Assembly: GCA_037445205.1 (NCBI GenBank)
Contig: JBBIKX010000001.1
Coordinates: forward strand, 8,767-72,766
DNA: 64,000 bases
From: Candidatus Wildermuthbacteria bacterium
GTDB taxonomy: Bacteria; Patescibacteriota; Minisyncoccia; Minisyncoccales; PEYH01
Direction: 5' to 3'
Both the position numbers and the translations under genes were made by a program. The notes below the pieces were generated by a model. It was not told where the DNA came from. It made no database searches and saw nothing but the letters and a program-made list of their open reading frames with translations. Shown here in pieces: positions 12,694-58,061 of this stretch. Position 1 is the stretch's first letter; the number at the start of each line of letters is the position of its first letter.

Positions 12694-13170
12694 ATGGAAA
12701 AAAAAGGTTTTAGAAAATTTAATCAAAAGCCGGCGGATGATTTTGTTTCCGAGTTTTTGGAAGTGAGGAGGGTGACAAAGGTTACAACCGGAGGGAAGAA
12801 ATTAAGATTTCGCGGCATTGTTGTTATAGGCGATAAGAAGGGAAAGGTTGGTTTGGGAGTGGCAAAGGGAAAAGATGTCGCCCAGGCGATTGAAAAAGCA
12901 GAAGCATCGGCAAGAAAAAATATAATTGATGTGCCCATCGTTGAGGGAACCATACCGCACGAAGTTATGGCAAAATTCGGCGCGGCAGTTATTCTTTTAA
13001 GACCCCAAAGAAAAGGAAGGGGGTTGGTTGCGGGCGGAACAGTGAGGGTTATTTGTCAGCTTGCAGGCATTAAAAACATTTCTTCAAAAACCCTTGGAAC
13101 AACAAGAAACAAGCTGAATAACGCCCGGGCAACTCTTAGAGCGATAAAGCAATTAAGGATAAAAAAGTAG
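12694..13170 (+). CDS. rpsE: 30S ribosomal protein S5
   Basis: Contains RVTKVTTGGKKLRFRGIVVIGD. Confidence 0.96.
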   Translation: MEKKGFRKFNQKPADDFVSEFLEVRRVTKVTTGGKKLRFRGIVVIGDKKGKVGLGVAKGKDVAQAIEKAEASARKNIIDVPIVEGTIPHEVMAKFGAAVILLRPQRKGRGLVAGGTVRVICQLAGIKNISSKTLGTTRNKLNNARATLRAIKQLRIKK

Positions 13171-13173
13171 TTT

Positions 13174-13617
13174 ATGCAAATTCACCAGATTAAGCCAAAA
13201 AATCCCCGCAAAAGGAAAAAACGGATCGGAAGGGGAGGCAAAAGAGGGGTTTTTTCCGGAAAGGGAACCAAAGGACAGAAATCGCGCGCAGGAAGAAGAA
13301 TGCAGCCCCTTATCAGAACCCTCATTAAAAAATATCCAAAACTCAGAGGATATAGCTTTAAGGCAAAAAATAAAAATCAAAATTCAAAAATCGCCGCTTT
13401 GAATATAGAAACCTTAGAAAAACAATTTCAAGACGGGGATAAGGTTTCTTTTAAGAGTTTGCTTGAAAAAAGAATAATTCGTAAAATAAAAGGAGCAGCG
13501 CCCAGAGTAAAAATTTTAGGAAGGGGCAATTTAAACAAAAAAATTACAATTGAAAAATGCATGGTTTCCAAAACCGCCCGGGAGAAAATTAAAAAAACGG
13601 GCGGAAAGATTTTATAA
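13174..13617 (+). CDS. rplO: 50S ribosomal protein L15 (follows S5 directly; no L30 gene)
   Basis: Contains KRIGRGGKRG and GQKSRAG. Only 3 nt separate it from rpsE. Confidence 0.94.
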   Translation: MQIHQIKPKNPRKRKKRIGRGGKRGVFSGKGTKGQKSRAGRRMQPLIRTLIKKYPKLRGYSFKAKNKNQNSKIAALNIETLEKQFQDGDKVSFKSLLEKRIIRKIKGAAPRVKILGRGNLNKKITIEKCMVSKTAREKIKKTGGKIL

Positions 13618-13620
13618 TTT

Positions 13621-14913
13621 TTGAAAATGTGGTCTGGCAAGCTTTTACAAATTTTTAAAATACGCGATTTAAGGAAAAAGATTTTCTTCGTTTTGCTGAT
13701 TTTTATTGTTTTCAGAATGATGGCAAACATTCCCGCGCCGGGAGTAAATACGGAAAATTTAAAAGAATTCTTTCAAAGATTTCAGGTCTTTGGCCTGATG
13801 AATATTTTTGCGGGCGGGGCGATGGAAAATGTTTCTATCGCCATGCTTGGATTGGGTCCCTATATTACAGCTACCATTATTTTTCAGCTCTTAACCCTTA
13901 TTTTTCCAGCTCTTGAGAGAATGTATAAGGAAGAAGGCGATGCGGGGAGAAAAAAATTCAATCAATATGCAAGAATTGTAACTGTGCCGCTGGCTCTTGT
14001 TCAGGCATATGCGATGCTTTCCTTTTTTCAAAAACAGAACGCGGTGAGTTTTGATTCTTCGTTTTCTCTTTTGGCGTCTGTGGTGGCGGTGACGGCGGGC
14101 AGTATTTTTCTGATGTGGCTTGGAGAATTAATTACAACAAGGGGTATCGGCAATGGCGTATCCCTTTTAATTTTTGCGGGAATTGTCGCGCGCCTGCCCC
14201 TAAATATCTGGGAAATAATGGTGAAATGGGAACGTTCCCAAATTCCATTCTATGCTTTGTTTTTGGCATCAATATTCGCGATTATATTCGGAGTTGTTTT
14301 TGTGACAGAGGCCAGAAGGAATATTCCCGTCTCCTACGCCAAAAGGGTGAGAGGGTCAAAAATTTATGGAGGGGTTTCTACGTATCTTCCTATGAGTGTT
14401 AATCCTGCGGGGGTTATTCCGATTATTTTCGCCCTTTCCATTATGATTTTTCCGGGGATGATCGCTAATTTTTTAACGGGCGCAGGGGGCAAAGTTGGTC
14501 TTGTTGCTCAGGCAATAGCGAATTTTTTTGATCCCCAAAAACATCCCTTTGGGCATGGCGCTATGTATTTCGCCCTTGTTTTCATCTTCACATATTTTTA
14601 TACGATGGTTACTTTTGATCCCAAAACTATTTCTTCTAACTTGCAAAAAATGGGCGGATTTGTTCCCGGTATTAGGCCCGGAACATCAACGGTGCAACAT
14701 CTTTCATTCATACTGCACAGGGTTTTATTTATCGGAGCCCTTTTTCTAGCCGCGATCGCTGTCATGCCTTCTATTATTCAGGGAATAACAAGAATAACTG
14801 CTCTGCAGTTTCTAATCGGGGGTACTTCTGTTTTGATTATGGTGAGCGTTATTTTGGAAATGGTGAAGCAGATTAATTCTCAGCTCCAGATGCGGGAGTA
14901 CGAAACAATTTAA
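13621..14913 (+). CDS. secY: Preprotein translocase subunit SecY
   Basis: 430-aa polytopic protein with GLGPYITATII; spc-operon position. The start could be the ATG at 13627. Confidence 0.95.
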   Translation: MKMWSGKLLQIFKIRDLRKKIFFVLLIFIVFRMMANIPAPGVNTENLKEFFQRFQVFGLMNIFAGGAMENVSIAMLGLGPYITATIIFQLLTLIFPALERMYKEEGDAGRKKFNQYARIVTVPLALVQAYAMLSFFQKQNAVSFDSSFSLLASVVAVTAGSIFLMWLGELITTRGIGNGVSLLIFAGIVARLPLNIWEIMVKWERSQIPFYALFLASIFAIIFGVVFVTEARRNIPVSYAKRVRGSKIYGGVSTYLPMSVNPAGVIPIIFALSIMIFPGMIANFLTGAGGKVGLVAQAIANFFDPQKHPFGHGAMYFALVFIFTYFYTMVTFDPKTISSNLQKMGGFVPGIRPGTSTVQHLSFILHRVLFIGALFLAAIAVMPSIIQGITRITALQFLIGGTSVLIMVSVILEMVKQINSQLQMREYETI

Positions 14914-14936
14914 TTGCGCCTCTTTTGACCTAAAAC

Positions 14937-15656
14937 ATGTCGGAGTTAAAAAAAATAGACAGCCAGAGGATTATTATTGTTATTGGACCTCCGGGATCGG
15001 GCAAGGGAACTCAGGCAATTCTTCTTGCCGATAAATTGGGGTTATATTATTTTGAAACAAGCAAAATAATAGAGCTTAACGTGATGAATGCAAAGAAAGG
15101 AGAGTGGCAGATGGTTGAGGGTAAAAAATATTTTCTTGAAAACGAAAAAATAATATGGGAGAAAGGGGGATTGTGCAGTCCGCCGATAGTAACTTTTTGG
15201 GTCAAGGAAAAAATTAAAAATTTGGCAAACGAAAATCAAGGTATTATTTTTGCGGGTAGTCCTAGAACTATTTACGAAGCAGAAAACCTAATGCCTCTGC
15301 TGGAAAAACTTTATAAAAAAGAAAATATCAAGATTGTTTTGTTAGATTTGCCCCCGGAGCAGACATTGTGGCGCAATTCAAGAAGAAAAATCTGCACATT
15401 AATGCGCCATCCGATTATTTATCATCAGGAAACAAAAAAACTGAAAATTTGCCCGCTCGACGGCTCTAAGCTGGTGACAAGAGTGGGGCTTGACAGTAAA
15501 AAATCAATCAAATTAAGAGTTGAACAGTATCAAATCAGAACCTTTCCGGTTATAGACTATCTCAAGAAAAACCAATACGAAGTTGTAAAGATAAACGCGA
15601 TGCCCGCTCCATCAATAGTTTTTTCCGATATTTGCGACGCACTTGATATAAAATGA
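14937..15656 (+). CDS. adk: Adenylate kinase
   Basis: P-loop GPPGSGKGTQA; follows secY. Confidence 0.9.
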   Translation: MSELKKIDSQRIIIVIGPPGSGKGTQAILLADKLGLYYFETSKIIELNVMNAKKGEWQMVEGKKYFLENEKIIWEKGGLCSPPIVTFWVKEKIKNLANENQGIIFAGSPRTIYEAENLMPLLEKLYKKENIKIVLLDLPPEQTLWRNSRRKICTLMRHPIIYHQETKKLKICPLDGSKLVTRVGLDSKKSIKLRVEQYQIRTFPVIDYLKKNQYEVVKINAMPAPSIVFSDICDALDIK

Positions 15657-16405
15657 GAGAAATTCCCGTTAAAACCAAAGAAGAAATAGAAATTATGGCC
15701 AGGGCCGGAAAAATCCTGGCTTTAATTTTAGATTCTTTAAAAAAAGAGATTCGAGCCGGCATAAAAACAAAAGATTTAGACTTAAAGGCCCGTCAATTAA
15801 TTAATTTTTACAAAGCGAAGCCAGCTTTTCTGGGATACGATAATTTTCCGGCTGTTTTATGCGTTTCCGTGAACGACATAATCGTCCACGGAGTGCCCTC
15901 TGATCATCAATTAAAAACAGGGGATATTATAAGCCTGGATCTTGGAATAAAATATGGCGGTTTTTATGTTGATATGGCGGTTACGATGCCGGTTGGAAAA
16001 GTTGATTCCGAGGCCTTAAGATTGATAAAAACCACAAAAAAAGCGCTCAAAAGAGCAATCAAAAAAGTCAGGCCCGGGAACACTTTTGGCGATGTCAGCA
16101 ACACTATTCAAAGATATATTGAGAAGCGGGGATTTTTTGTGATAAAAGATCTGTGCGGGCATGGCATCGGGAAAAAGCTTCACGAACCGCCGGAAATTTT
16201 AAATTATGGCAAAAGAAAAACAGGTCCTTTGTTGCGCGAAGGAATGGTTTTTTGTATAGAGCCAATGGCTTCAATCAGCGCTGAAAAAACAAAAAAATCC
16301 GATGATATCTGCGGATACAAAACGATTGATGGATCTCTGTCCGCCCATTTTGAACATACAGTGGCAGTGACAAAAAATGGGGCAAGGATTCTCACTAAAA
16401 TTTGA
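15653..16405 (+). CDS. map: Methionine aminopeptidase type I
   Basis: 250 aa with HGVP, GHGIG and FCIEP motifs; follows adk. Confidence 0.94.
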   Translation: MREIPVKTKEEIEIMARAGKILALILDSLKKEIRAGIKTKDLDLKARQLINFYKAKPAFLGYDNFPAVLCVSVNDIIVHGVPSDHQLKTGDIISLDLGIKYGGFYVDMAVTMPVGKVDSEALRLIKTTKKALKRAIKKVRPGNTFGDVSNTIQRYIEKRGFFVIKDLCGHGIGKKLHEPPEILNYGKRKTGPLLREGMVFCIEPMASISAEKTKKSDDICGYKTIDGSLSAHFEHTVAVTKNGARILTKI

Positions 16406-47561: not shown

Positions 47562-49058
47562 ATGAGCTATATTGTTAAAATAATATTTTTTTGGAAAAGA
47601 ATTTATTTGCTGATAATGATTATCTGTTTTTCTTTATTCGCAGAGTTTGCGTTGGCAGAAGAAATTAAACAAGAAATATATGTCCCCAAAATAGAAATAG
47701 GCGATGGAATTACTCATTTAGCCAGAAAAACAATAATTGAATTTATAAAAAGAGAGGGTATTGACCCCAGAATTACGGTTCCGCACTTGGTTTATATTGA
47801 GGATCGTCTTGCGATAGAAAAAGGAAAGAAAACTATTTATTTAAAAGATTTTTCGCCAATAAATTTTTCCAGTGAAGAAATATCTAGGGCGATAAATAAA
47901 GCGTTGCTGCTTAACGAAAAGCAGATTTTAAGCTTAGAGCACTACGCTCTGTCCGTAAGCGCATATTTTGACTTAATAGTTAATAATAAGTTGCGGTTTA
48001 ATATAAAAAAAATTTCCGATTATAATTTGCCCCAGATAACCGGATTAGGATATCGCTTTATTGTTTACAAAGACAATATTTTTTTATTAGACATAGAGAA
48101 AAAAATAATGATTTTAGATATAGCGAATTCTAAAACCCCGAAGTTAATTGCCGAATTTTCTCCACCCCCTGGGGCTCGATGTAATAATCTTGCCTCTCTA
48201 CAAGACAATTTGATCGCTCTTTTTTGCTGGAATTCTTTTTCCGAGAGAATAATCTATTTTCTCGAGGTAGACAATCCTTTTGATTTGAAAATTATTTCAG
48301 AGTATAAGTTCGGCAAGGGAAATCTTATGGGAAATGCCGCTATAAAAGATTCTTTGCTTTTTTTGAGCGATTATAATCTATTTGAGGCAATAGACGTAGG
48401 CGATATTAAAACACCAAAATTAATTTTTAAACATGAATTTGATGATAGCTTTGAGCCGGTGAATATAACAAAAAAAGATAATCTTTTAATAGTCGGCTAT
48501 GATAAAAACTCTCCCCAGATCTTATGGTTGTTTGATGCCAAAAATTTTGAAATAAAAGAATTAGAAATACAAAACGAGAAAGCGATAAAACATCGCTATT
48601 TTTGGAGAAGCAGGGAAGGAAAAAACTGGCTCTTGGGTTCGCCCAGTATTTATTATTATTTTCCTTCATTGCTATTTATCAACTCCAAGGATATTTCTTT
48701 GGGAAAAAATAGCGGAATCTTGAACGTTAAGCCCTTTGAATTTCAATGTCCTTTATTAGAAAATCCAATTTTTGACTATGATAGCAAAGATGATGTCGTA
48801 TATCTTTATGTTCGCAGCCGCTATTTGAGAGACCCGACAAACAATATAACAGAATGTTGTGATGAGAATCTTTATATTTTGGATTTTAATGCTATTGGAG
48901 AAGAGCCACTAAAAGAGATTATAAATATCGGAAAATCCCCAGTTCTATTTAAAAATATGAACCTACAAAAGAGTAGATTATTTACTGTAACCGACTCCTT
49001 AACGACTTCTTGGCAAAAACTGGAAATTTATCAATTAATAAAAACTATCCATCCTTGA
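47562..49058 (+). CDS. Hypothetical secreted or anchored repeat protein (LVIVD/beta-propeller-like repeats, tentative)
   Basis: 498 aa with an N-terminal TM/signal segment. Recurrent D[IV].....PKLI motifs. Confidence 0.55.
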   Translation: MSYIVKIIFFWKRIYLLIMIICFSLFAEFALAEEIKQEIYVPKIEIGDGITHLARKTIIEFIKREGIDPRITVPHLVYIEDRLAIEKGKKTIYLKDFSPINFSSEEISRAINKALLLNEKQILSLEHYALSVSAYFDLIVNNKLRFNIKKISDYNLPQITGLGYRFIVYKDNIFLLDIEKKIMILDIANSKTPKLIAEFSPPPGARCNNLASLQDNLIALFCWNSFSERIIYFLEVDNPFDLKIISEYKFGKGNLMGNAAIKDSLLFLSDYNLFEAIDVGDIKTPKLIFKHEFDDSFEPVNITKKDNLLIVGYDKNSPQILWLFDAKNFEIKELEIQNEKAIKHRYFWRSREGKNWLLGSPSIYYYFPSLLFINSKDISLGKNSGILNVKPFEFQCPLLENPIFDYDSKDDVVYLYVRSRYLRDPTNNITECCDENLYILDFNAIGEEPLKEIINIGKSPVLFKNMNLQKSRLFTVTDSLTTSWQKLEIYQLIKTIHP

Positions 49059-50006: not shown

Positions 50007-50429
50007 ATGAAAAAAATACAAACAAAAGTTAAACTCCATATCGCCGCCGCTCAGGCTAATCCCGCCCCTCCTATCGGTCCCGCCCTTGCGCAACACGGAA
50101 TAAACATCGCTGACTTTTGCCAGAAGTTTAATGCCGCAACTAAAAATCTGGCAGGTTATCAGATTCCTGTTGAAATATCAATATACGAGGACAGGACTTT
50201 TAATTTTAAAATAAAACAGCCCCTTGTCAGCGATCTTTTAAAAAAGGCAGCGGGCATTGAGAAAGGGTCGGGCGAGCCGAATAAAATTAAGGCTGGAATA
50301 ATCACCAAAGAGCAGTTAAAAGAGATTGCCCAGAAGAAATTAGACGATTTAAACACAAAAAACATTGATGCCGCAATGAAAATTATTGAAGGACAGGCAA
50401 GATCAATGGGAATTGAAATTAAAAATTAG
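50007..50429 (+). CDS. rplK: 50S ribosomal protein L11
   Basis: Contains [21 protein letters not shown]. Confidence 0.96.
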
Positions 50430-50434
50430 TTTTT

Positions 50435-51265
50435 ATGACCCAGTTTGACGAGCAGTATAAACAAGCAATCTGGGAAGTAATGAACGGAGGTACGGAAATT
50501 TACAGCGCAAGACAGAAATGTCATACCAAAGCTTTTCCGGGCATAACCTTTAATTTAGACAAAGGATTTCCTCTGCTTACTTTGAGAAAAATTCCTGTTA
50601 AAATTTTTGTCGCTGAACAATTCTGGTTTTTGATGGGCGAAAAAGACCCCAAGGTTTTTTTAAAAAAATTTACTGCCATATGGGATGATTTTGCCGATCA
50701 AAATGGATTAGTTTTGGGCGCTTATGGCTATCGCTGGAGGAAGCATTTTGGGAAAGATCAAATAGCCAATTTGTTGAGCCTTCTTTCCCAGGATCCAAGT
50801 TCGCGTCACGGAGTTGTGGTGGCGTGGGATCCCTCAGACGACATCAGGACCCTTGATTCAAAAAAGAAAAACGTTCCCTGCCCCTATACTTTCACTGTTA
50901 ATATTATCGGCAATAAGCTTCATATTCATATTATTATAAGGTCAAACGATATGATTCTTGGCTGTCCTCACGATATTGCGGGATTTGCGCTTTTGCAAAG
51001 GATTTTGGCCGGAAAGCTGGGGGTAAAGACAGGAAAGCTTACTTGTTCCATCAGCAATGCCCACATTTACGATATTCATTACAATGCGGCATGGGAGATG
51101 CTTGAAAGAAAAAACAATCATCCCGAAATTATTTTGGACGCAGAAGAAAATTGGTTTGACAGGGCGGAGAAGGGAGATGAATCGCTTGCTCAAGAAATTA
51201 TAGATACCATTGCAAGACAATATAGCCCGATGAATCCCATTAAGGGCTTAAAAATTATTTTATAA
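50435..51265 (+). CDS. ThyA-family pyrimidine-nucleotide C5 methylase/hydroxymethylase homologue, with Asp at the Asn177-equivalent position
   Basis: Aligns without gaps to E. coli ThyA over [27 protein letters not shown] against KLHIHIIIRSNDMILGCPHDIAGFALL. The catalytic Cys (VPCP, codon 149) and the AHIY motif are present. Confidence 0.8.
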   Translation: MTQFDEQYKQAIWEVMNGGTEIYSARQKCHTKAFPGITFNLDKGFPLLTLRKIPVKIFVAEQFWFLMGEKDPKVFLKKFTAIWDDFADQNGLVLGAYGYRWRKHFGKDQIANLLSLLSQDPSSRHGVVVAWDPSDDIRTLDSKKKNVPCPYTFTVNIIGNKLHIHIIIRSNDMILGCPHDIAGFALLQRILAGKLGVKTGKLTCSISNAHIYDIHYNAAWEMLERKNNHPEIILDAEENWFDRAEKGDESLAQEIIDTIARQYSPMNPIKGLKIIL

Positions 51266-51270
51266 ATTAT

Positions 51271-51777
51271 ATGAAAATAATTTTAGTAATGGCAATCACG
51301 CTTGATGGGAAAATTGCCAAGACAAAAGACCATTTTCCAAACTGGACGTCAAAGGAGGATAAAAACTTCTTTGCCAAAATTTCAAAAAAGCACAAGGTCG
51401 TCTTAATGGGAAAGAACACTTTTGATACCTTCAAAAAACCGCTCAAAGACAGATTAAATGTGGTTTTTACAAATAAAAAAAATCTGGCGAAGATAAAAAA
51501 TGTAATGTGGGTTTCGGGCAAAATAAGTCCGATTTTAAAAAAGCTGGAAAAGAGGGGATATAAATCGGCGGTTCTTGGCGGAGGAGCAATGTTGAACGCA
51601 GAGTTCTTAAAGGAAAAATTGATAGATGAGGTTATAGTCACAATCAATCCCAAAATCTTTGGGCGAGGGATATCTTTGTTTGAAGGAGATTTTGATATTG
51701 ATTTAAAACTTTTAAAAGTGGAAAATATTAATAAAGATACGATAGCTCTTCGTTATAGGCCGGTGTTTTGTAATTAA
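51271..51777 (+). CDS. Dihydrofolate-reductase-like protein (RibD C-terminal domain family)
   Basis: Contains MKIILVMAITLDGKIA, VVLMGKNTF and VLGGGAMLNAEFL. Confidence 0.75.
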   Translation: MKIILVMAITLDGKIAKTKDHFPNWTSKEDKNFFAKISKKHKVVLMGKNTFDTFKKPLKDRLNVVFTNKKNLAKIKNVMWVSGKISPILKKLEKRGYKSAVLGGGAMLNAEFLKEKLIDEVIVTINPKIFGRGISLFEGDFDIDLKLLKVENINKDTIALRYRPVFCN

Positions 51778-51786
51778 ATTAAAAAT

Positions 51787-52443
51787 ATGCCCCTATCAAA
51801 ACCTGAAATCATAAAATCCATCCAAGAAGAGAAAATTAAATTTGAACCGTCTCTTGATAAATTTCAGCTTCAGCCCCATTCCATTGATTTGCGGCTTGGT
51901 TGGAATTTTTATATACCAAAAAACTGGGCAATCACGGAAAAGGGAAGGGTTGGCGTAAGTATTGATTATTTGGACACGCAATCCCAAAAAGACAACTTTG
52001 ATTTAATCAAATTAAAACCCGGTCAGTATTTTGAAATTTTGCCAAAAGAATTCATTATTGCTTCGACAATGGAAAAGGTGGTTATAGAAGCCGATAAGCT
52101 AATGGCATTGTTGTATCCCAGAAGCTCTTTTACAAGAAAAGGGTTGTTCATTGCCAGCGGAATCGTTGATGTAAAATACAGCGGATATCTGGCTCTTTCA
52201 GTGATAAACAATACAGAAACCCAGATTATAAGGCTATATCCGGGCGAAAGAGTGTGCCAGCTGGTCTTTCATTTTTTAAGCTCTGCTTTGTCGCCAGAAG
52301 AGGCAATTAAGCACGGGATAAGCGATTCCAAATATTTAAAAGCGGCTCCTTATTCTCTTGAGGCAAAAAGCGACAATCAGGAAGAAATAGATCTAATCAG
52401 ATTTGGAAAGATTGGCGAATTGAAAGAAAAATTCAAATTATAA
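51787..52443 (+). CDS. dcd: dCTP deaminase family protein
   Basis: Contains SIDLRLG, GIVDVKYSGYLALSVIN and VCQLVF. Confidence 0.8.
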   Translation: MPLSKPEIIKSIQEEKIKFEPSLDKFQLQPHSIDLRLGWNFYIPKNWAITEKGRVGVSIDYLDTQSQKDNFDLIKLKPGQYFEILPKEFIIASTMEKVVIEADKLMALLYPRSSFTRKGLFIASGIVDVKYSGYLALSVINNTETQIIRLYPGERVCQLVFHFLSSALSPEEAIKHGISDSKYLKAAPYSLEAKSDNQEEIDLIRFGKIGELKEKFKL

Positions 52444-52449
52444 AAGCCG

Positions 52450-52908
52450 ATGGGAAAAGAAGGAATAAAATATCCCTATTTGCCGGAAGCAAGAGAAATA
52501 AAATTTGTTTCAGAAAAAAATATTTTTATCAGGGAGGCGAAGAAAATTTGCAAAAAGAAAGGATGCATTGCGCATCCAACAGGGGCGGTTTTGGTCAAAA
52601 AGAATAAAATCATAGGGAAGGGGACTAACGCCGCAAAAAAAATAAAAGATTGTCCAAGGGCTTTGAAAAAAAGCAAGACCGGCCAAGATTATCATTTATG
52701 CAAAAAAATTTGCCTGCAGGAAGGACACGCAGAAGCGATGGCGATTAAAAGCGCAAAAGAAAAAAAGGAGAAAATCAGAGGAGCAGATTTATATCTTTAT
52801 GGCCATTGGTGGTGCTGTAAAGATTGTTGGGATAAAATCATCAAAGAAGGGATAGGAGAGGTTTATTTAATTGAAAACGCTTTTGATAAATTTCATAAGC
52901 GAATATGA
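52450..52908 (+). CDS. Deoxycytidylate (dCMP)/cytidine deaminase zinc-binding family
   Basis: Contains the HAEAMAI and CCKDC zinc ligands. Confidence 0.8.
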   Translation: MGKEGIKYPYLPEAREIKFVSEKNIFIREAKKICKKKGCIAHPTGAVLVKKNKIIGKGTNAAKKIKDCPRALKKSKTGQDYHLCKKICLQEGHAEAMAIKSAKEKKEKIRGADLYLYGHWWCCKDCWDKIIKEGIGEVYLIENAFDKFHKRI

Positions 52909-53540: not shown

Positions 53541-55024
53541 TAAATTCATCAAAAAAATATATTCCCGTCATCGGGCTTGAAATACATACGGAATTAAAAA
53601 CTAATTCCAAAATGTTTTGCGGGTGCAAAAACGATTCGCAGGAAAAAGAAGCGAATTTGAATATTTGTCCTGTTTGCATGGGTCATCCCGGCACTCTCCC
53701 CGTTATAAACAAAACAGCGATTCGTTTTGTCATAAAAACAGGGATTGCTCTGAATTGTAAAATTACAAAAGAGTCGCGATTTGAAAGAAAAAATTATTTT
53801 TATCCCGATCTTCCAAAAGGATATCAGATTTCTCAATACAAAGAGCCGTTTTGTTTTAATGGCTTTTTAAAAATAAATAATAAAAAAATAAGAATTAGAA
53901 GGGTTCATTTGGAAGAAGATACTGCCCGCCTGATACACTCCAAAAATGGATATTCGCTGATTGATTTCAACCGCGCCGGCATTCCTTTAATGGAGCTTGT
54001 AACGGAGCCGGACATAGAATCTTCTAAAGAGGCATCAGACTTCGCAAAAAAACTTCAGTTGATCCTGAGATATTTAAATGTTTCCAGCGCTGACATGGAA
54101 AAAGGGCAATTGAGAGTGGAGGCAAATATTTCATTAATAAACGCAAATTTTAAAGCAAAAAACGCAAAACTAGGAACAAAGGTGGAGATCAAAAATTTAA
54201 ATTCGTTTAGGGCAGTTGAGAGGGCGATAGAATATGAAATAGAAAGGCAAAAGGAGTTACTATTAAATGATGAGAGGGTGGCGCAGGAAACAAGAGGATG
54301 GGATCCTCAATCAGAAAGAACCTTTCCCCAGAGAGAAAAAGAAGAGGCGCATGATTACCGCTACTTTCCAGAGCCGGATTTGCCCCAGATTTATATAAAA
54401 AAAGACTATCTGGAGGCGATAAAAAAAGGAATTCCCGAACTTCCCGATCAAAAAATAAAAAGATTAAAAGAAGAATTTTTTGTTAACGAACAATCAGCCC
54501 AGATTCTTGTCTCTAACAGAGATTTAAGCGAGTATTTTGAAAAATCGGCAAGCGAGCTTTTAAGATGGTCAAAAGACAAAAGATTAGATCAAAAGAGCCA
54601 AAAAGAATTGATACAGAGCGCCGCCAACTATCTTTTGACAGATTTACTCGGCTGTCTTTCAGGGAAAGAATTTTCAGAAAAAGATTTTCCCATAACGCCT
54701 GAAAATTTCGGAGAGTTTATCGCTCTTGTCCGCGATAAAAAATTCACAAGCAAAATGGCAAAAATTCTTTTAGGAGAGATGTTTGATTCCGGCCAAGATC
54801 CCTCAACCATAATAAAAAAAAGAGGATTAATCCAGACGGACAACGAAGATGAGATTAAAAAAATAGTGCAAAAAATAATTTCATCAAATCCTCGGGCATT
54901 TGAAGATTATAAAAAAGGAAAAGAAAATGCTCTTCAATTCATGATTGGACAAATGATGAAAGAAACTAAAGGCACTATAAATCCCCAGATGGCAAAGAAA
55001 GCGTTGATTGATTTTTTAAAATAA
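53537..55024 (+). CDS. gatB: Glu/Asp-tRNA amidotransferase subunit B
   Basis: Contains IGLEIHTELKT, VCMGHPGTLPVINK and RVEANISL. Confidence 0.95.
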   Translation: MINSSKKYIPVIGLEIHTELKTNSKMFCGCKNDSQEKEANLNICPVCMGHPGTLPVINKTAIRFVIKTGIALNCKITKESRFERKNYFYPDLPKGYQISQYKEPFCFNGFLKINNKKIRIRRVHLEEDTARLIHSKNGYSLIDFNRAGIPLMELVTEPDIESSKEASDFAKKLQLILRYLNVSSADMEKGQLRVEANISLINANFKAKNAKLGTKVEIKNLNSFRAVERAIEYEIERQKELLLNDERVAQETRGWDPQSERTFPQREKEEAHDYRYFPEPDLPQIYIKKDYLEAIKKGIPELPDQKIKRLKEEFFVNEQSAQILVSNRDLSEYFEKSASELLRWSKDKRLDQKSQKELIQSAANYLLTDLLGCLSGKEFSEKDFPITPENFGEFIALVRDKKFTSKMAKILLGEMFDSGQDPSTIIKKRGLIQTDNEDEIKKIVQKIISSNPRAFEDYKKGKENALQFMIGQMMKETKGTINPQMAKKALIDFLK

Positions 55025-55032
55025 TATATAAT
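55004..55032 (+). promoter_or_regulatory. Near-consensus promoter of cassette C
   Basis: TTGATT(55004-55009, inside the last gatB codons), 17-nt spacer, TATAAT(55027-55032). Confidence 0.55.
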
Positions 55033-55135
55033 ACTTAAAATCCAGAATAAGGAGGTGGTCGCCGGGATACAGTCCAAAGAGGGCGAGGGGCGTTTTCGGA
55101 AGCAAAACCGGATCTTTCTTGCGAAAGGAGCATCG

Positions 55136-55333
55136 ATGCCAGCAGTAAATCTTGTTAACGTGGCGAGGTCATTGCCGGACGAAGAGGCGGAGAGGCTTTT
55201 GCTCATCGAGCAAAGCAATCCTGATTGCCTCAGGGCGCTTTTTGCGGTCGTTCTGAGCGCCGGAACGCTGGAAAAAGCTGTTCCTCTGATCCAACGAGTT
55301 CTTGCTGGCGCACCCTTGTTTCCGGGCGGATGA
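55136..55333 (+). CDS. 65-aa helical protein, unknown family (a 92-aa form from the GTG at 55055 is possible)
   Basis: AAAGGAG(55124-55130) lies 5 nt before the ATG at 55136. The same frame is open from 55055, but that GTG sits inside an SD (AAGGAGGTG 55049-55057). Confidence 0.5.
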   Translation: MPAVNLVNVARSLPDEEAERLLLIEQSNPDCLRALFAVVLSAGTLEKAVPLIQRVLAGAPLFPGG

Positions 55334-56341
55334 AACTGGATGGGGCTCCCTTCGGGAGCCCCCTTGTTTTGTTAAAAAAGTATTTATTATTTTTCTGGCT
55401 TTTTTTTTATCCCCAACCCAATTTACTCTTTTGTCTTTTTTAAACCAGGTTATTTGTCTTTTGGCGTAACTTTCAATTGCTTTTTGGAGCATTCCGACCA
55501 TTTCATCATAGCCAATTTTTTTTTGAAGATAGCAAGCAATATATCTGTATTCCAATCCAAATTCTTCAAGCCGTTTCCAGGAAACGCCGTCTTTTCTTAG
55601 CGCTCTGACCTCTTTTATCATCCCCTGATTTAATCTTTTGTATAGCCGTTTTCTGATTAAATTTTTTAGCTCTTTTTTTTCTTTCTTGATGCCGATAATG
55701 AGCAAATCAAACAATTGGCTTTTTTTTATGACGGGTACCGGTTTTTTTGATTTCAAAACTATTTCAATTGCCCGGATTAATCTGCGGGGATTTTTTTTAT
55801 CAATAATTTTTGCCCGCCGCGGGTCCAGTTTTTTTAACATTTGATAAAGCTGGTTTGGCAATTTTTTTTCCAGTTTTTTCCTTAATTTCCAGTCCGGCGG
55901 AATTTTTGGGATGACGATTCCGTCAACGACTGATTGAATATAGAATCCGGTGCCGCCGCAAAGAATGGGCAGCTTATTTCTCTTATGGATTTCCCTTATT
56001 TTTTTTAATGCCATTTTTTGATACTGGGCGACCGTAAATTTCCTTTTTGGAGAAGCAACATCCAAAAGATGATGTTGGATGCCTCTATAAAGATATGACT
56101 GTTTTGAAATTTGAGATTTAGGACTTGGAGTTTGTTTAGAAATTAGAAATTTGGAATTAGAAATTTTATCTCGTGGAACCTTCCCGGTTCCGATATCCAT
56201 TTTGCGATAAACCTGACGGGAATCGGCCGAAATCACCTCTCCGTTAAAATTTTTTGCCAGTGCTACCGCCAAATCGCTTTTTCCCGAAGCAGTGGGTCCA
56301 AGAATAACTAACAATATTTTTCGGTCCGTTTTTTTTGACAT
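55169..56341 (-). CDS. miaA: tRNA dimethylallyltransferase MiaA. The conserved core is 55364-56341; the ORF then runs 64 further codons antisense into cassette C.
   Basis: P-loop LGPTASGKS, plus DSRQVY, GGTGFY and AKRQITWF. The homologous end (KIINTFLTKQ) coincides with the composition boundary at about 55364. Confidence 0.88.
   Translation of the reverse strand: MSKKTDRKILLVILGPTASGKSDLAVALAKNFNGEVISADSRQVYRKMDIGTGKVPRDKISNSKFLISKQTPSPKSQISKQSYLYRGIQHHLLDVASPKRKFTVAQYQKMALKKIREIHKRNKLPILCGGTGFYIQSVVDGIVIPKIPPDWKLRKKLEKKLPNQLYQMLKKLDPRRAKIIDKKNPRRLIRAIEIVLKSKKPVPVIKKSQLFDLLIIGIKKEKKELKNLIRKRLYKRLNQGMIKEVRALRKDGVSWKRLEEFGLEYRYIACYLQKKIGYDEMVGMLQKAIESYAKRQITWFKKDKRVNWVGDKKKARKIINTFLTKQGGSRREPHPVSSARKQGCASKNSLDQRNSFFQRSGAQNDRKKRPEAIRIALLDEQKPLRLFVRQ
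55342..55372 (+). terminator. Terminator of cassette C
   Basis: GGGGCTCCC(55342-55350) pairs with GGGAGCCCC(55354-55362), followed by CTTGTTTTGTT. Confidence 0.7.
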
Positions 56342-56363
56342 AATCCCAAGAATATTATATCAT
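56335..56363 (+). promoter_or_regulatory. Candidate promoter of cassette D
   Basis: TTGACA(56335-56340, overlapping the miaA start codon on the other strand), 17-nt spacer, TATCAT(56358-56363). The predicted +1 falls at TCCC (56370). Confidence 0.4.
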
Positions 56364-56389
56364 TATAAATCCCAAAAAGGAGGTGGTTA

Positions 56390-56683
56390 ATGTCGTATTA
56401 TTTAGCAATAATGTTTATGTTGCTAAGCGCAGGCTTTGCAAGTGCGGGGTTTAGGGTGATCCGTTATGCCCTTCGAGGAAAGCTGACAGGCACTATGCTT
56501 GATAGAGGCATGATACTCGGTACTGTCATCGTGCTTGTTGGAGTGGGGCTCGCCACGATTCCCATCATCTTCCAGAGCGGGATAAGATGGTGGTGTCTTG
56601 CGCTGGCGCTTGTGGAGGCAGTGGTCTGTATTGGGCTCTGGATGCTGCATGTCTTCTCGTCTGCGTCAATGGATTCACCCTAA
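56390..56683 (+). CDS. 97-aa integral membrane protein, about 3 TM helices, unknown family
   Basis: GGAGGTG(56379-56385) lies 4 nt before the ATG. Hydrophobic segments: YYLAIMFMLLSAGFASAGF, ILGTVIVLVGVGLATIPIIF, WWCLALALVEAVVCIGLWML. Confidence 0.7.
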   Translation: MSYYLAIMFMLLSAGFASAGFRVIRYALRGKLTGTMLDRGMILGTVIVLVGVGLATIPIIFQSGIRWWCLALALVEAVVCIGLWMLHVFSSASMDSP

Positions 56684-56695
56684 GGCGTGGATTGC

Positions 56696-56728
56696 GAGGG
56701 CTCTCTTGTGCGGGGGCCCTCCTTTTTT
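56696..56728 (+). terminator. Terminator of cassette D, abutting the miaB stop codon
   Basis: GAGGGCTCTC(56696-56705) pairs with GGGGGCCCTC(56712-56721) using G-U pairs, followed by CTTTTTT. Confidence 0.6.
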
Positions 56729-58061
56729 ATTCCATCAATTTTCCTCTCAGTCCGTATGGACCAATGTTTATTATTTTGGCTTTAACAAAATTTCCTAAAA
56801 TATTTTTATCTGATTTCAATCTAATGGTTTGATAATGCCTTGTTTTTCCGACATAAAAATCATTTTTTTTGGTGAGTATCAAAACTTCCGCGGTTTTTTT
56901 AAAAAACTTCTTGTTAAAATTTAAAATGGTTTTTTTTAATACTTTGAATAATTCTTTTTCTCTTGTTTTTTTCTTAAAGTTGGGGACATCGTCGTTTAAA
57001 TGAAGGGCGGCTGTTTGAGGCCTTTTAGAATAAGCCGCAATATATCCAAACGCAAATCCGATTTTTTCAAAATTATTTTTTGTATTTTCAAATTGTTTTT
57101 TGGTCTCGCCGGGAAATCCTACAATTACATCAGAAGATACAGCCACTTCTTTTTCGATGCCGCATCTGTATTTTTTAAAATTATTTCTTATTTTTTTAAT
57201 AAGCGCTTTATATTGAGATACAGTGTAGGGCCTATTCATTTTTTTAAGGATTTCATTGTCTCCTGATTGAATTGGAAGATTAATATAGGGCGTTACTTTA
57301 TGGCATTTTGCCATTGTTTTAATTAGTTCGTCGCTTAAATCTTTTGGATGAGAAGAGGTAAATCTTATCCAAAAATTCCCCTCAATATCATTTATCATTT
57401 TAAGAAGCGTTGGAAAATTTATTTCTTTTTCTTTTTTCACTTTAAGGTTTGTGTTTTGGATTTTACCATTATAGGAATTGACATTCTGTCCCAACAGCCA
57501 TACTTCTTTTGCTCCGCTTAAAACGGCCTTTTTTATTTCACAAATAATATCTTGGGCCGGCCTTGAGATTTCTTTTCCTCTTACATAAGGTACGACGCAA
57601 TAACTGCAGAAATTATTGCACCCGGTCATTATCGGAATATAGGCAACAACAGGGGATTGATATTTAGGCATTAATTCAAAATAGTGTTTTTTTTTGAATT
57701 CAACCGACCTAATTTTAAAACCAAGCTTTTTTAATATCTCGGGCAATTTGGGAAGCTCATTTATGTCAAAGATTTCATCGCAGAATTTATTAAGTTCTTT
57801 TTTGTCTTTTTCTAAGATACATCCCGTTAAAATAATTTTATATTTTATATTTTTATTTTCATATTTGAGCCTTATCTTTTTAATTCGAGCGCTTGCTCGA
57901 TCTATCGCCGACTGTCTGACTGAACAGATATTAAACACTATCAAATCCACCCCATCGCATTTATTGGCATGATTAAATCCTGATTTTTCCAAAACGCCTG
58001 CGATTCTTTCGGAGTCAGATTTATTCATTTGGCACCCAAAAGTGATAATATGATATTTCAT
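56727..58061 (-). CDS. miaB: MiaB/RimO-family radical-SAM methylthiotransferase
   Basis: Contains ITFGCQMNKSDSE, GCNNFCSYCVVP and a C-terminal TRAM-like domain. Confidence 0.88.
   Translation of the reverse strand: MKYHIITFGCQMNKSDSERIAGVLEKSGFNHANKCDGVDLIVFNICSVRQSAIDRASARIKKIRLKYENKNIKYKIILTGCILEKDKKELNKFCDEIFDINELPKLPEILKKLGFKIRSVEFKKKHYFELMPKYQSPVVAYIPIMTGCNNFCSYCVVPYVRGKEISRPAQDIICEIKKAVLSGAKEVWLLGQNVNSYNGKIQNTNLKVKKEKEINFPTLLKMINDIEGNFWIRFTSSHPKDLSDELIKTMAKCHKVTPYINLPIQSGDNEILKKMNRPYTVSQYKALIKKIRNNFKKYRCGIEKEVAVSSDVIVGFPGETKKQFENTKNNFEKIGFAFGYIAAYSKRPQTAALHLNDDVPNFKKKTREKELFKVLKKTILNFNKKFFKKTAEVLILTKKNDFYVGKTRHYQTIRLKSDKNILGNFVKAKIINIGPYGLRGKLME

Follow-up and report, generated by a model that had tools for sequence, protein, structure and literature searches.

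An aspartate-type thymidylate synthase homolog

The stretch analyzed, a 64-kb window of contig JBBIKX010000001.1 from a Candidatus Wildermuthbacteria assembly, encodes a 276-residue protein of the thymidylate synthase (TS) fold, read from an ATG start to a TAA stop and matching Pfam model PF00303 (Thymidylat_synt) over residues 6-243 with an E-value of 7.7e-50. Its gene lies in an operon with the order rplK, TS homolog, dihydrofolate reductase (DHFR), Dcd-like protein, deaminase, tmk, gatB, in which the gaps between successive genes are 5, 5, 9, 6, -4 and -4 bp (coordinates in Table 1). A first-pass annotation had proposed that this protein, called the window enzyme below, acts on a cytosine nucleotide, Asp standing where Asn177 of Escherichia coli ThyA specifies uracil. 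Active-site residues, relationship to the enzyme of phage Xp12, and gene context lend in silico support to that proposal, and suggest a folate-dependent methyltransferase acting at C5 of deoxycytidine monophosphate (dCMP).

HMMER alignment to solved thymidylate synthases runs without a gap through the active-site strand and helix, just as the annotation had judged by eye, and sets RSNDMILGCPHDIAGFALL over RSADIFLGVPFNIASYALL (in the stretch rsndmilgcphdiagfall versus rsadiflgvpfniasyall). MAFFT alignment with E. coli ThyA, Lactobacillus casei TS and phage T4 dCMP hydroxymethylase places Asp180 under Asn177, Asn229 and Asp179, respectively, and bears out the remark that the T4 enzyme combines Asp at this position with the same RSND motif. 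The T4 sequence used was 100% identical to PDB entry 1B49; for E. coli and L. casei, residue numbering is consistent with PDB alignments. The catalytic Cys falls exactly at codon 149 (TGC, 50879-50881), and the residues listed earlier as conserved, the equivalents of Arg166, Ser167, Asp169, Glu58, Tyr94 and a His/Tyr pair (H207, Y209), are all present, together with those of R21, W80 and R126. The three replacements named by the annotation, N177D, H147P (codon 150, CCC) and R127H (codon 125, CAC), are likewise found, and to them we add Q165I, C168N, W83F, F176H and L143N. At E. coli positions 83, 126, 127, 147, 165, 167, 168, 176 and 177, the window enzyme reads F R H P I S N H D, the Xp12 enzyme F R R P L S S Y D, and E. 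coli ThyA W R R H Q S C F N. The C-terminus keeps a tail of the TS type, YSPMNPIKGLKIIL aligning by MAFFT to the E. coli tail YDPHPGIKAPVAI. A confident AlphaFold2 (AF2) model built with 53 homologs as input (pLDDT 91, pTM 0.91) superposes on the ThyA structures of E. coli and Mycobacterium tuberculosis with a TM-score of about 0.8.

Distribution and conservation

The 120 closest proteins, at 58-85% identity, all come from assemblies of the Patescibacteria, or Candidate Phyla Radiation (CPR). Eleven of them fall outside the motif pattern; the remaining 109, in which the motif can be read, all carry Asp in the form RSND...P-x-D. Relatives of the window enzyme occur in at least 447 GTDB species genomes. 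The best 80 of these 447 genome loci, aligned together with the window (n=81), belong to Parcubacteria- and Microgenomates-type groups, including Falkow-, Kuenen-, Moran-, Harrison-, Doudna-, Davies-, Shapiro-, Woese- and Jacksonbacteria. Asp180, Asn146, Cys149, Asp172 and Phe86 are invariant in all 81, which also keep the equivalents of C146, E58, Y94, R21, R126, R166, S167, D169, H207 and Y209; Pro150 is found in 80 and Val or Ile at the Q165 position in 79. The changes that move together with Asp are His147 to Pro, Gln165 to Ile or Val, Trp83 to Phe, and Arg127 to His or Gln. Asp is present in every readable close homolog and in every aligned locus, and is thus no chance event but a trait of the family in this cellular lineage.

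The chromosome sampled by the window is of low GC content, about 39%, and its genes include gyrB, secE, nusG, rplK, gatB, miaA, miaB, thrS, pheST and a dnaE fragment. An origin of the TS homolog in a prophage or other mobile element was considered and is ruled out by these housekeeping neighbors (gyrB, secE, nusG, rplK, gatB, miaA, miaB, thrS and pheST). Neither ThyX nor a second TS was found in the window, and ThyX was likewise not found in flanks of 8-10 kb on either side of the related loci. Every source annotates the protein as thymidylate synthase, and papers on the CPR treat the gene as thyA; in our literature searches, no paper remarked on the Asp that the protein has in these bacteria.

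The Asp-type module was also observed on high-GC contigs labeled Ktedonobacterales, three with a GC content of 64-67% (L061, L064 and L077) and a fourth, L086, 366 kb long (GCA_021323855.1). Neighboring genes there encode an F420H2 quinone reductase, an enoyl-CoA hydratase and a TIR protein, and resemble those of a free-living bacterium outside the CPR. The Asp-type clade may therefore extend beyond the Patescibacteria, or these contigs may have been mis-binned. A search for a cultured host, with the high-GC homolog as query, returned metagenome-assembled genomes only.

Residues that bear on substrate and product

In canonical ThyA, Asn177 admits deoxyuridine monophosphate (dUMP) and excludes dCMP, and His147 and Gln165 line the uracil O4 side of the pocket. 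In the window enzyme these three positions are taken by Asp180, Pro150 and Ile168. The literature confirms the mutagenesis invoked by the annotation, in which N177D in E. coli and N229D in L. casei lead to methylation of dCMP; in T4 dCMP hydroxymethylase the opposite substitution moves activity toward dUMP, and by MetaGPA the two residues most tied to cytosine-modified DNA in viromes are those at 177 and, in second place, 147 (PMC8670742). Product rules published in 2026 take Asp177 to mean a dCMP substrate, an acidic residue at L143 to mean a hydroxymethyl product, and D169N to mean a 5-hydroxy product (PMC13326640), while Lys at R126' and Ala at S167 mark the ribonucleotide preference of MilA and BcmA (PMC5175136).

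Read by these rules, the window enzyme would probably prefer dCMP. It has Arg124 at the R126' position and Ser170 at the S167 position, which argues for a deoxyribonucleotide rather than a ribonucleotide; Asp172, the D169 equivalent, is kept in 81 of 81 loci, which argues against a 5-hydroxy-dCMP synthase of the RB69 gp48 type; and the L143 position is Asn146 in the same 81 loci, as in Xp12, instead of Asp or Glu. That Asn, the retention of the TS tail where T4-type enzymes have a truncated C-terminus, and the linked DHFR described below argue against hydroxymethylation. If dCMP is indeed the substrate, the product is very probably the methyl derivative. The annotation had left room for a 5-methyl product, a 5-hydroxymethyl product or the CMP form; the evidence favors methylation of the deoxynucleotide and speaks against the other two.

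Relationship to the dCMP methylase of phage Xp12

By sequence comparison, the closest tested relative of the window enzyme appears to be the dCMP methylase of Xanthomonas phage Xp12 (QNN97214.1), not T4 gp42. The two share 35% identity, a common AYGYRWRxHFGxDQ motif and an insertion ending in KNVPCP. All cytosine in Xp12 DNA is replaced by 5-methylcytosine (5mC), and the phage TS homolog yields 5-methyl-dCMP (5mdCMP) in vivo; of seven further Asp-type enzymes linked to a deaminase, five, all metaviromic, do likewise (bioRxiv 10.1101/2024.12.05.627091). When the nearest 150 representatives of clusters at 50% identity, among 1.84 billion, were inspected, Asp was found in 135, most of which form a large RSSD...PYD group that includes the Bradleyvirinae phage TS homologs of Mallos, phiH2, PaMx74 and Xp12. 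Rooting a neighbor-joining (NJ) tree on T4 dCMP hydroxymethylase proved uninformative, its long branch shifting about (quartets 58/36/6), and T4 was for that reason left out of the decisive analysis, in which 95 of 100 bootstraps split all 23 Asn-type representatives from the window enzyme plus Xp12. A hidden Markov model (HMM) built from 63 Xp12-like representatives gives the window enzyme 242.6 bits versus 220.7 bits with an Asn-type HMM, and other CPR members gain 33-61 bits by the same comparison. The window enzyme thus groups with validated members and apart from Asn-type enzymes, and combines Asp at 177 with a residue other than His at 147 (D180 and P150, as D and P in Xp12). The PHROGs library places it in a single "thymidylate synthase" family with the validated Xp12 methylase, so libraries at the family level cannot discriminate between the two activities.

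Likeness to the Xp12 enzyme and its relatives in PaMx74, Mallos and phiH2 extends to Asp at N177, Pro at H147, Phe at W83, an aliphatic residue at Q165, Asn at L143, a C-terminus of TS length, and adjoining genes for DHFR and for a protein of the dCMP deaminase family; the Xp12 layout is hydrolase, TS, dCMP deaminase, DHFR, and the corresponding genes of the window begin at 51271 (DHFR) and 52450 (deaminase). The window enzyme differs in being cellular, conserved across the Patescibacteria, and encoded in a ribosomal-protein and tRNA-synthetase neighborhood of a bacterial chromosome; it reads RSND...PHD where Xp12 reads RSSD...PYD, and its family has His or Gln for Arg127. The dCMP supplier is a HAD/MazG hydrolase in the phage and would be a Dcd-family protein here, Tmk is encoded within the operon here, the deaminases of phage and window are not detectably orthologous, and the DNA of these bacteria presumably does not have its cytosine replaced by 5mC.

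The engineered dCMP methylases, E. coli ThyA N177D and L. casei TS N229D (PDB 1NJC), likewise combine the TS scaffold with Asp, but as single mutants lack the changes at 147, 165, 168, 83, 127 and 143. T4 gp42 (PDB 1B49) resembles the window enzyme in the non-polar residue at Q165 and in the catalytic Cys, Glu and Tyr, but at 22% identity it has Asp at L143, lacks the C-terminal tail, and hydrates the methylene intermediate instead of reducing it, whereas in the window enzyme that position is Asn146, the tail is present and a DHFR is linked. Canonical ThyA from E. coli, M. tuberculosis and Enterococcus faecalis shares the fold, the catalytic machinery, the folate-side W80 and D169, the tail and the DHFR linkage, but identity is 27-29%, and its Asn177, His147, Gln165, Trp83 and Arg127 are all replaced.

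The operon and its neighbors

Neighbor conservation was scored at the 43 loci with at least 5 kb on each side, counting genes within 5 kb in either direction. DHFR and the Dcd-like protein are each found in 42 of these, a deaminase of the cytidine deaminase (CDA) fold in 39, and Tmk in 31, so that the set is kept across the radiation, if sometimes rearranged. In viromes, co-localization of TS and deaminase genes stands at 70% in cytosine-modified viral contigs, versus 6% in unmodified contigs (bioRxiv 10.1101/2024.12.05.627091).

Table 1. Features of the operon in the window, with the loci at which a TS-fold paralog is encoded
Feature	Position	Strand	Evidence or remark
rplK (ribosomal protein L11)	50007..50429	+	Translation; 5 bp upstream of TS homolog; neighborhood shared with L001/L002
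TS-fold enzyme, predicted dCMP C5-methyltransferase	50435..51265	+	PF00303, residue comparison, AF2 model, 35% identity to Xp12 enzyme
Cys149-Pro150 (TGC CCC; E. coli Cys146-His147)	50879..50884	+	Inside KNVPCP motif, common to Xp12 enzyme
Asp180 codon (GAT), pyrimidine specificity residue	50972..50974	+	E. coli Asn177, L. casei Asn229, T4 dCMP hydroxymethylase Asp179; invariant in 81/81 loci
DHFR-like reductase (RibD_C / DHFR_1)	51271..51777	+	PF01872 E 1e-24, PF00186 E 4e-14; 5 bp downstream of TS homolog
Dcd-like protein, predicted dCTP/dUTP pyrophosphatase	51787..52443	+	PF22769 E 5e-29; Ser138 (TCA 52198-52200) replaces deaminase Glu
CDA-fold deaminase, proposed 5-methyl-dCMP (or dCMP) deaminase	52450..52908	+	PF00383 E 2e-13; HAE 52726-52734, CxxC 52813-52827
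Tmk (dTMP kinase), 211 aa	52905..53540	+	TIGR00041 151.6 bits vs cutoff 83; 4-bp overlap with deaminase
TS-fold paralog loci	L037:9512-10537, L049:10005-11069, L057:6957-7997, L077:2691-3746, L086:11748-12878		Also at 5 more loci

The position of rplK, immediately upstream, places the module within a core housekeeping transcription unit. No rplA (L1) homolog was detectable by tblastn in the 64-kb window; the Falkowbacteria loci L001 and L002 have L11 and L1 upstream of the module. L1 is absent from some Parcubacteria, which the window fits.

The DHFR-like gene was taken by the annotation to favor reductive methyl transfer, a view that its linkage in 42 of 43 loci strengthens, for such linkage makes sense only if the TS homolog produces dihydrofolate and so argues against hydroxymethyl, hydroxy or ribonucleotide products. 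CPR folA genes, possibly of another DHFR family than the gene of the window, are able to complement E. coli folA (PMC11974145).

The Dcd-like protein scores above the cutoff of the dCTP deaminase model TIGR02274 (102 versus 92.8 bits). In alignment with the M. tuberculosis and Bacillus halodurans enzymes, however, the catalytic Glu (E129 in M. tuberculosis, E138 in E. coli) is replaced by Ser138, and among 78 orthologs that position holds Pro in 73, Ser in 3, a gap in 2, and Glu in none, while R110, S111, R115 and D128 are kept. Lacking the catalytic Glu, the protein is read as a pyrophosphatase, a dCTPase and/or dUTPase, and not as a deaminase. By this residue pattern, the whole CPR Dcd-like family is probably a dCTP/dUTP pyrophosphatase family mis-annotated as deaminase.

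The CDA-fold deaminase carries HAE and CxxC zinc motifs. Its best PDB match is the dCMP deaminase of Streptococcus mutans, at an E-value of only 2e-4, and its matches to the deaminases of Xp12, Mallos and phiH2 and to T4 Cd are marginal (E-values of 0.01 or more). Human dCMP deaminase accepts 5-methyl-dCMP (PMC12088426).

Two further observations concern the kinases of the operon. In Falkowbacteria (L001/L002) an extra 183-aa kinase of the AAA_17 type, at 12792-13343, directly follows the deaminase, and at 14881-16125 the same loci encode a 414-aa fusion of Tmk with thymidine kinase; the Tmk of the window is plain.

A proposed route to thymidylate and its alternatives

We propose that the window enzyme is an Xp12-type dCMP C5-methyltransferase serving a dUMP-independent thymidylate synthesis in the Patescibacteria, by way of dCTP, dCMP, 5-methyl-dCMP, deoxythymidine monophosphate (dTMP) and the diphosphate dTDP, a proposal to which, taken as a whole, we give an even chance of being right. 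The Dcd-like protein, acting as a pyrophosphatase, would convert dCTP to dCMP. Cys149 of the TS homolog would then attack C6 of dCMP, with Asp180 hydrogen bonding to and protonating N3/N4 of the cytosine, where canonical enzymes read uracil with Asn; the methylene group of 5,10-methylenetetrahydrofolate would be transferred and reduced by the cofactor hydride, giving 5-methyl-dCMP and dihydrofolate, and the adjacent DHFR would regenerate the folate cofactor. The CDA-fold deaminase would turn 5-methyl-dCMP into dTMP, which Tmk would phosphorylate to dTDP. Each gene of the operon would be used once, and no dUMP intermediate would be needed. The presence of Tmk in the operon would favor deamination at the monophosphate level. 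The thymidylate route of Xp12-infected cells, as papers citing Kuo 1982 and Wang and Ehrlich 1982 describe it, would be the phage counterpart. If the product is 5-methyl-dCMP, it is likely to be funneled onward to dTMP. The annotation had expected a cytosine product rather than dTMP; the cytosine product still stands, but with a deaminase and Tmk conserved next door, 5-methyl-dCMP looks like a precursor that is passed on to dTMP, so that "rather than dTMP" probably needs qualifying.

Several observations weigh against this proposal. The best structural matches of the AF2 model are canonical ThyA proteins, and the window enzyme passes the cutoff of the NCBIfam ThyA model TIGR03284 (122 versus 108 bits). 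In principle, an Asp that is protonated can read uracil too. The operon gene set also fits a classical scheme of the Gram-positive type, in which dCMP deaminase and a dUTPase-like enzyme supply dUMP to TS. With T4 dCMP hydroxymethylase included, NJ analysis did not settle the order of the CPR clade, the Xp12 clade and the T4 enzyme (quartets 58/36/6). The deaminase of the window is too divergent from characterized ones for its substrate to be read from homology, and the one phage deaminase of its type to be characterized uses 5mdCTP instead of 5mdCMP (bioRxiv 10.1101/2024.12.05.627091), so the order of steps could differ here. Dictyostelium Dcd2, possibly a member of the Glu-less family, is reported to lie within a Dcd clade rich in CPR sequences, and it can complement E. 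coli dcd (PMC10733785).

The strongest competing explanation gathers much of this evidence into an ordinary dUMP-dependent TS (EC 2.1.1.45), in which a protonated Asp reads uracil, dUMP comes from dCMP through the deaminase and from dUTP through the Dcd-like protein as a dUTPase, DHFR recycles the folate and Tmk acts on dTMP. The window enzyme retains its C-terminal tail and every residue of covalent catalysis and hydride transfer; the nearest fold is ThyA and TIGR03284 is passed; the operon is coherent as a classical dTMP module; and no source annotates the protein otherwise, nor does the window hold another TS. Yet the change from Asn to Asp is the best-documented specificity switch of the family, and here the partner residues orienting and hydrating the O4 side of uracil, His147 and Gln165, are lost along with it. 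All Asn-type sequences lie across the split with 95% bootstrap support, the window enzyme falls well under the cutoffs of seven of the eight NCBIfam ThyA equivalog models, and we know of no natural Asp-type enzyme for which dUMP methylase activity has been demonstrated. On balance we consider a dUMP-dependent enzyme unlikely, though a serious contender.

Two other explanations accept a cytosine substrate and differ from our proposal in the fate or nature of the product. 5-Methyl-dCMP might be phosphorylated and incorporated, giving chromosomal 5mC in place of much or all cytosine as in Xp12 and PaMx74, with the Dcd-like protein a dCTPase that clears dCTP and the deaminase diverting part of the pool to thymidylate. 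Xp12-type phages, which have the same three genes, follow identical logic; a dCTPase activity is plausible for a Dcd-family protein without the Glu, T4 gp56 being the analog; and the Falkowbacteria operon offers an extra AAA_17 kinase. Throughout the radiation, however, the gene sits in a core ribosomal-protein operon of cellular genomes beside a standard Tmk; the window has no dedicated 5mdCMP kinase, and literature searches found no report of globally 5mC-substituted CPR DNA. We therefore hold incorporation to be highly improbable; if true, it would make these bacteria the first cellular organisms with base replacement at the nucleotide level, which has to date been seen in phages alone. Slighter still is the chance that dCMP receives another C5 group (hydroxymethyl, as with T4 gp42, or hydroxyl, as with RB69 gp48), or that CMP is the substrate as for MilA, in the service of a modified base or secondary metabolite. 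Asp177 and RSND are indeed common to the window enzyme and T4 dCMP hydroxymethylase, and the residue at L143 is not a bulky hydrophobic one. That residue is nonetheless Asn, as in Xp12, and D169, R126 and S167 are all kept; the TS-type tail, absent from the T4 enzyme, is present, DHFR accompanies the gene almost without exception, and no glycosyltransferase or other tailoring gene is encoded nearby.

A TS-fold paralog in place of the deaminase

At nine related loci, and also at the Ktedonobacterales-labeled locus L086, the operon encodes a TS-fold paralog of about 340-376 residues instead of the CDA-fold deaminase. Its catalytic Cys is replaced by Tyr (PPYQ), but it keeps the SRR and HR-x-x-D motifs, the phosphate-binding Arg residues, and Asp at the N177 position. 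Deaminase and paralog are mutually exclusive, with the deaminase only at 65 loci, the paralog only at nine, and both at none. The paralog family comprises about 125 clusters among 5.8 billion proteins, all unnamed and uncharacterized, and may represent a non-orthologous replacement of the deaminase step.

Implications

Phages already provide examples of this type of enzyme and of the two-step route; we found no paper noting that a major bacterial radiation has them as its conserved thymidylate module, seemingly a housekeeping one. If our proposal of a dCMP methylase feeding dTMP is correct, what is called "ThyA" in a large share of the bacterial tree, with a relative in at least 447 GTDB species genomes, would be a dCMP methylase, and cells would have a third way to thymine beside ThyA and ThyX, one documented so far only in Xp12-infected cells. 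Metabolic reconstructions of the Patescibacteria would change, and a systematic annotation error would be corrected. The route would bear on how uracil is excluded from the DNA of ultra-small cells, and predicts insensitivity to inhibitors that are dUMP analogs. It would also represent a cellular reservoir, or the origin, of the phage cytosine-methylation module. New dCMP methylases would become available, and perhaps deaminases selective for 5mC, such as are at present under development for methylation sequencing. Cloned genes offer a direct test of the question.

Other features of the window

Between gyrB and secE lies a 498-aa ORF (47562-49058) whose product has a hydrophobic segment at the N-terminus and matches no Pfam model at an E-value of 1e-3. 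Gene orientation switches from plus to minus at about 55.0-55.2 kb, and cumulative GC skew peaks at about 56-58 kb; together, the switch and the peak at about 55000-58000 form the pattern expected at a replication terminus or other strand-bias boundary.

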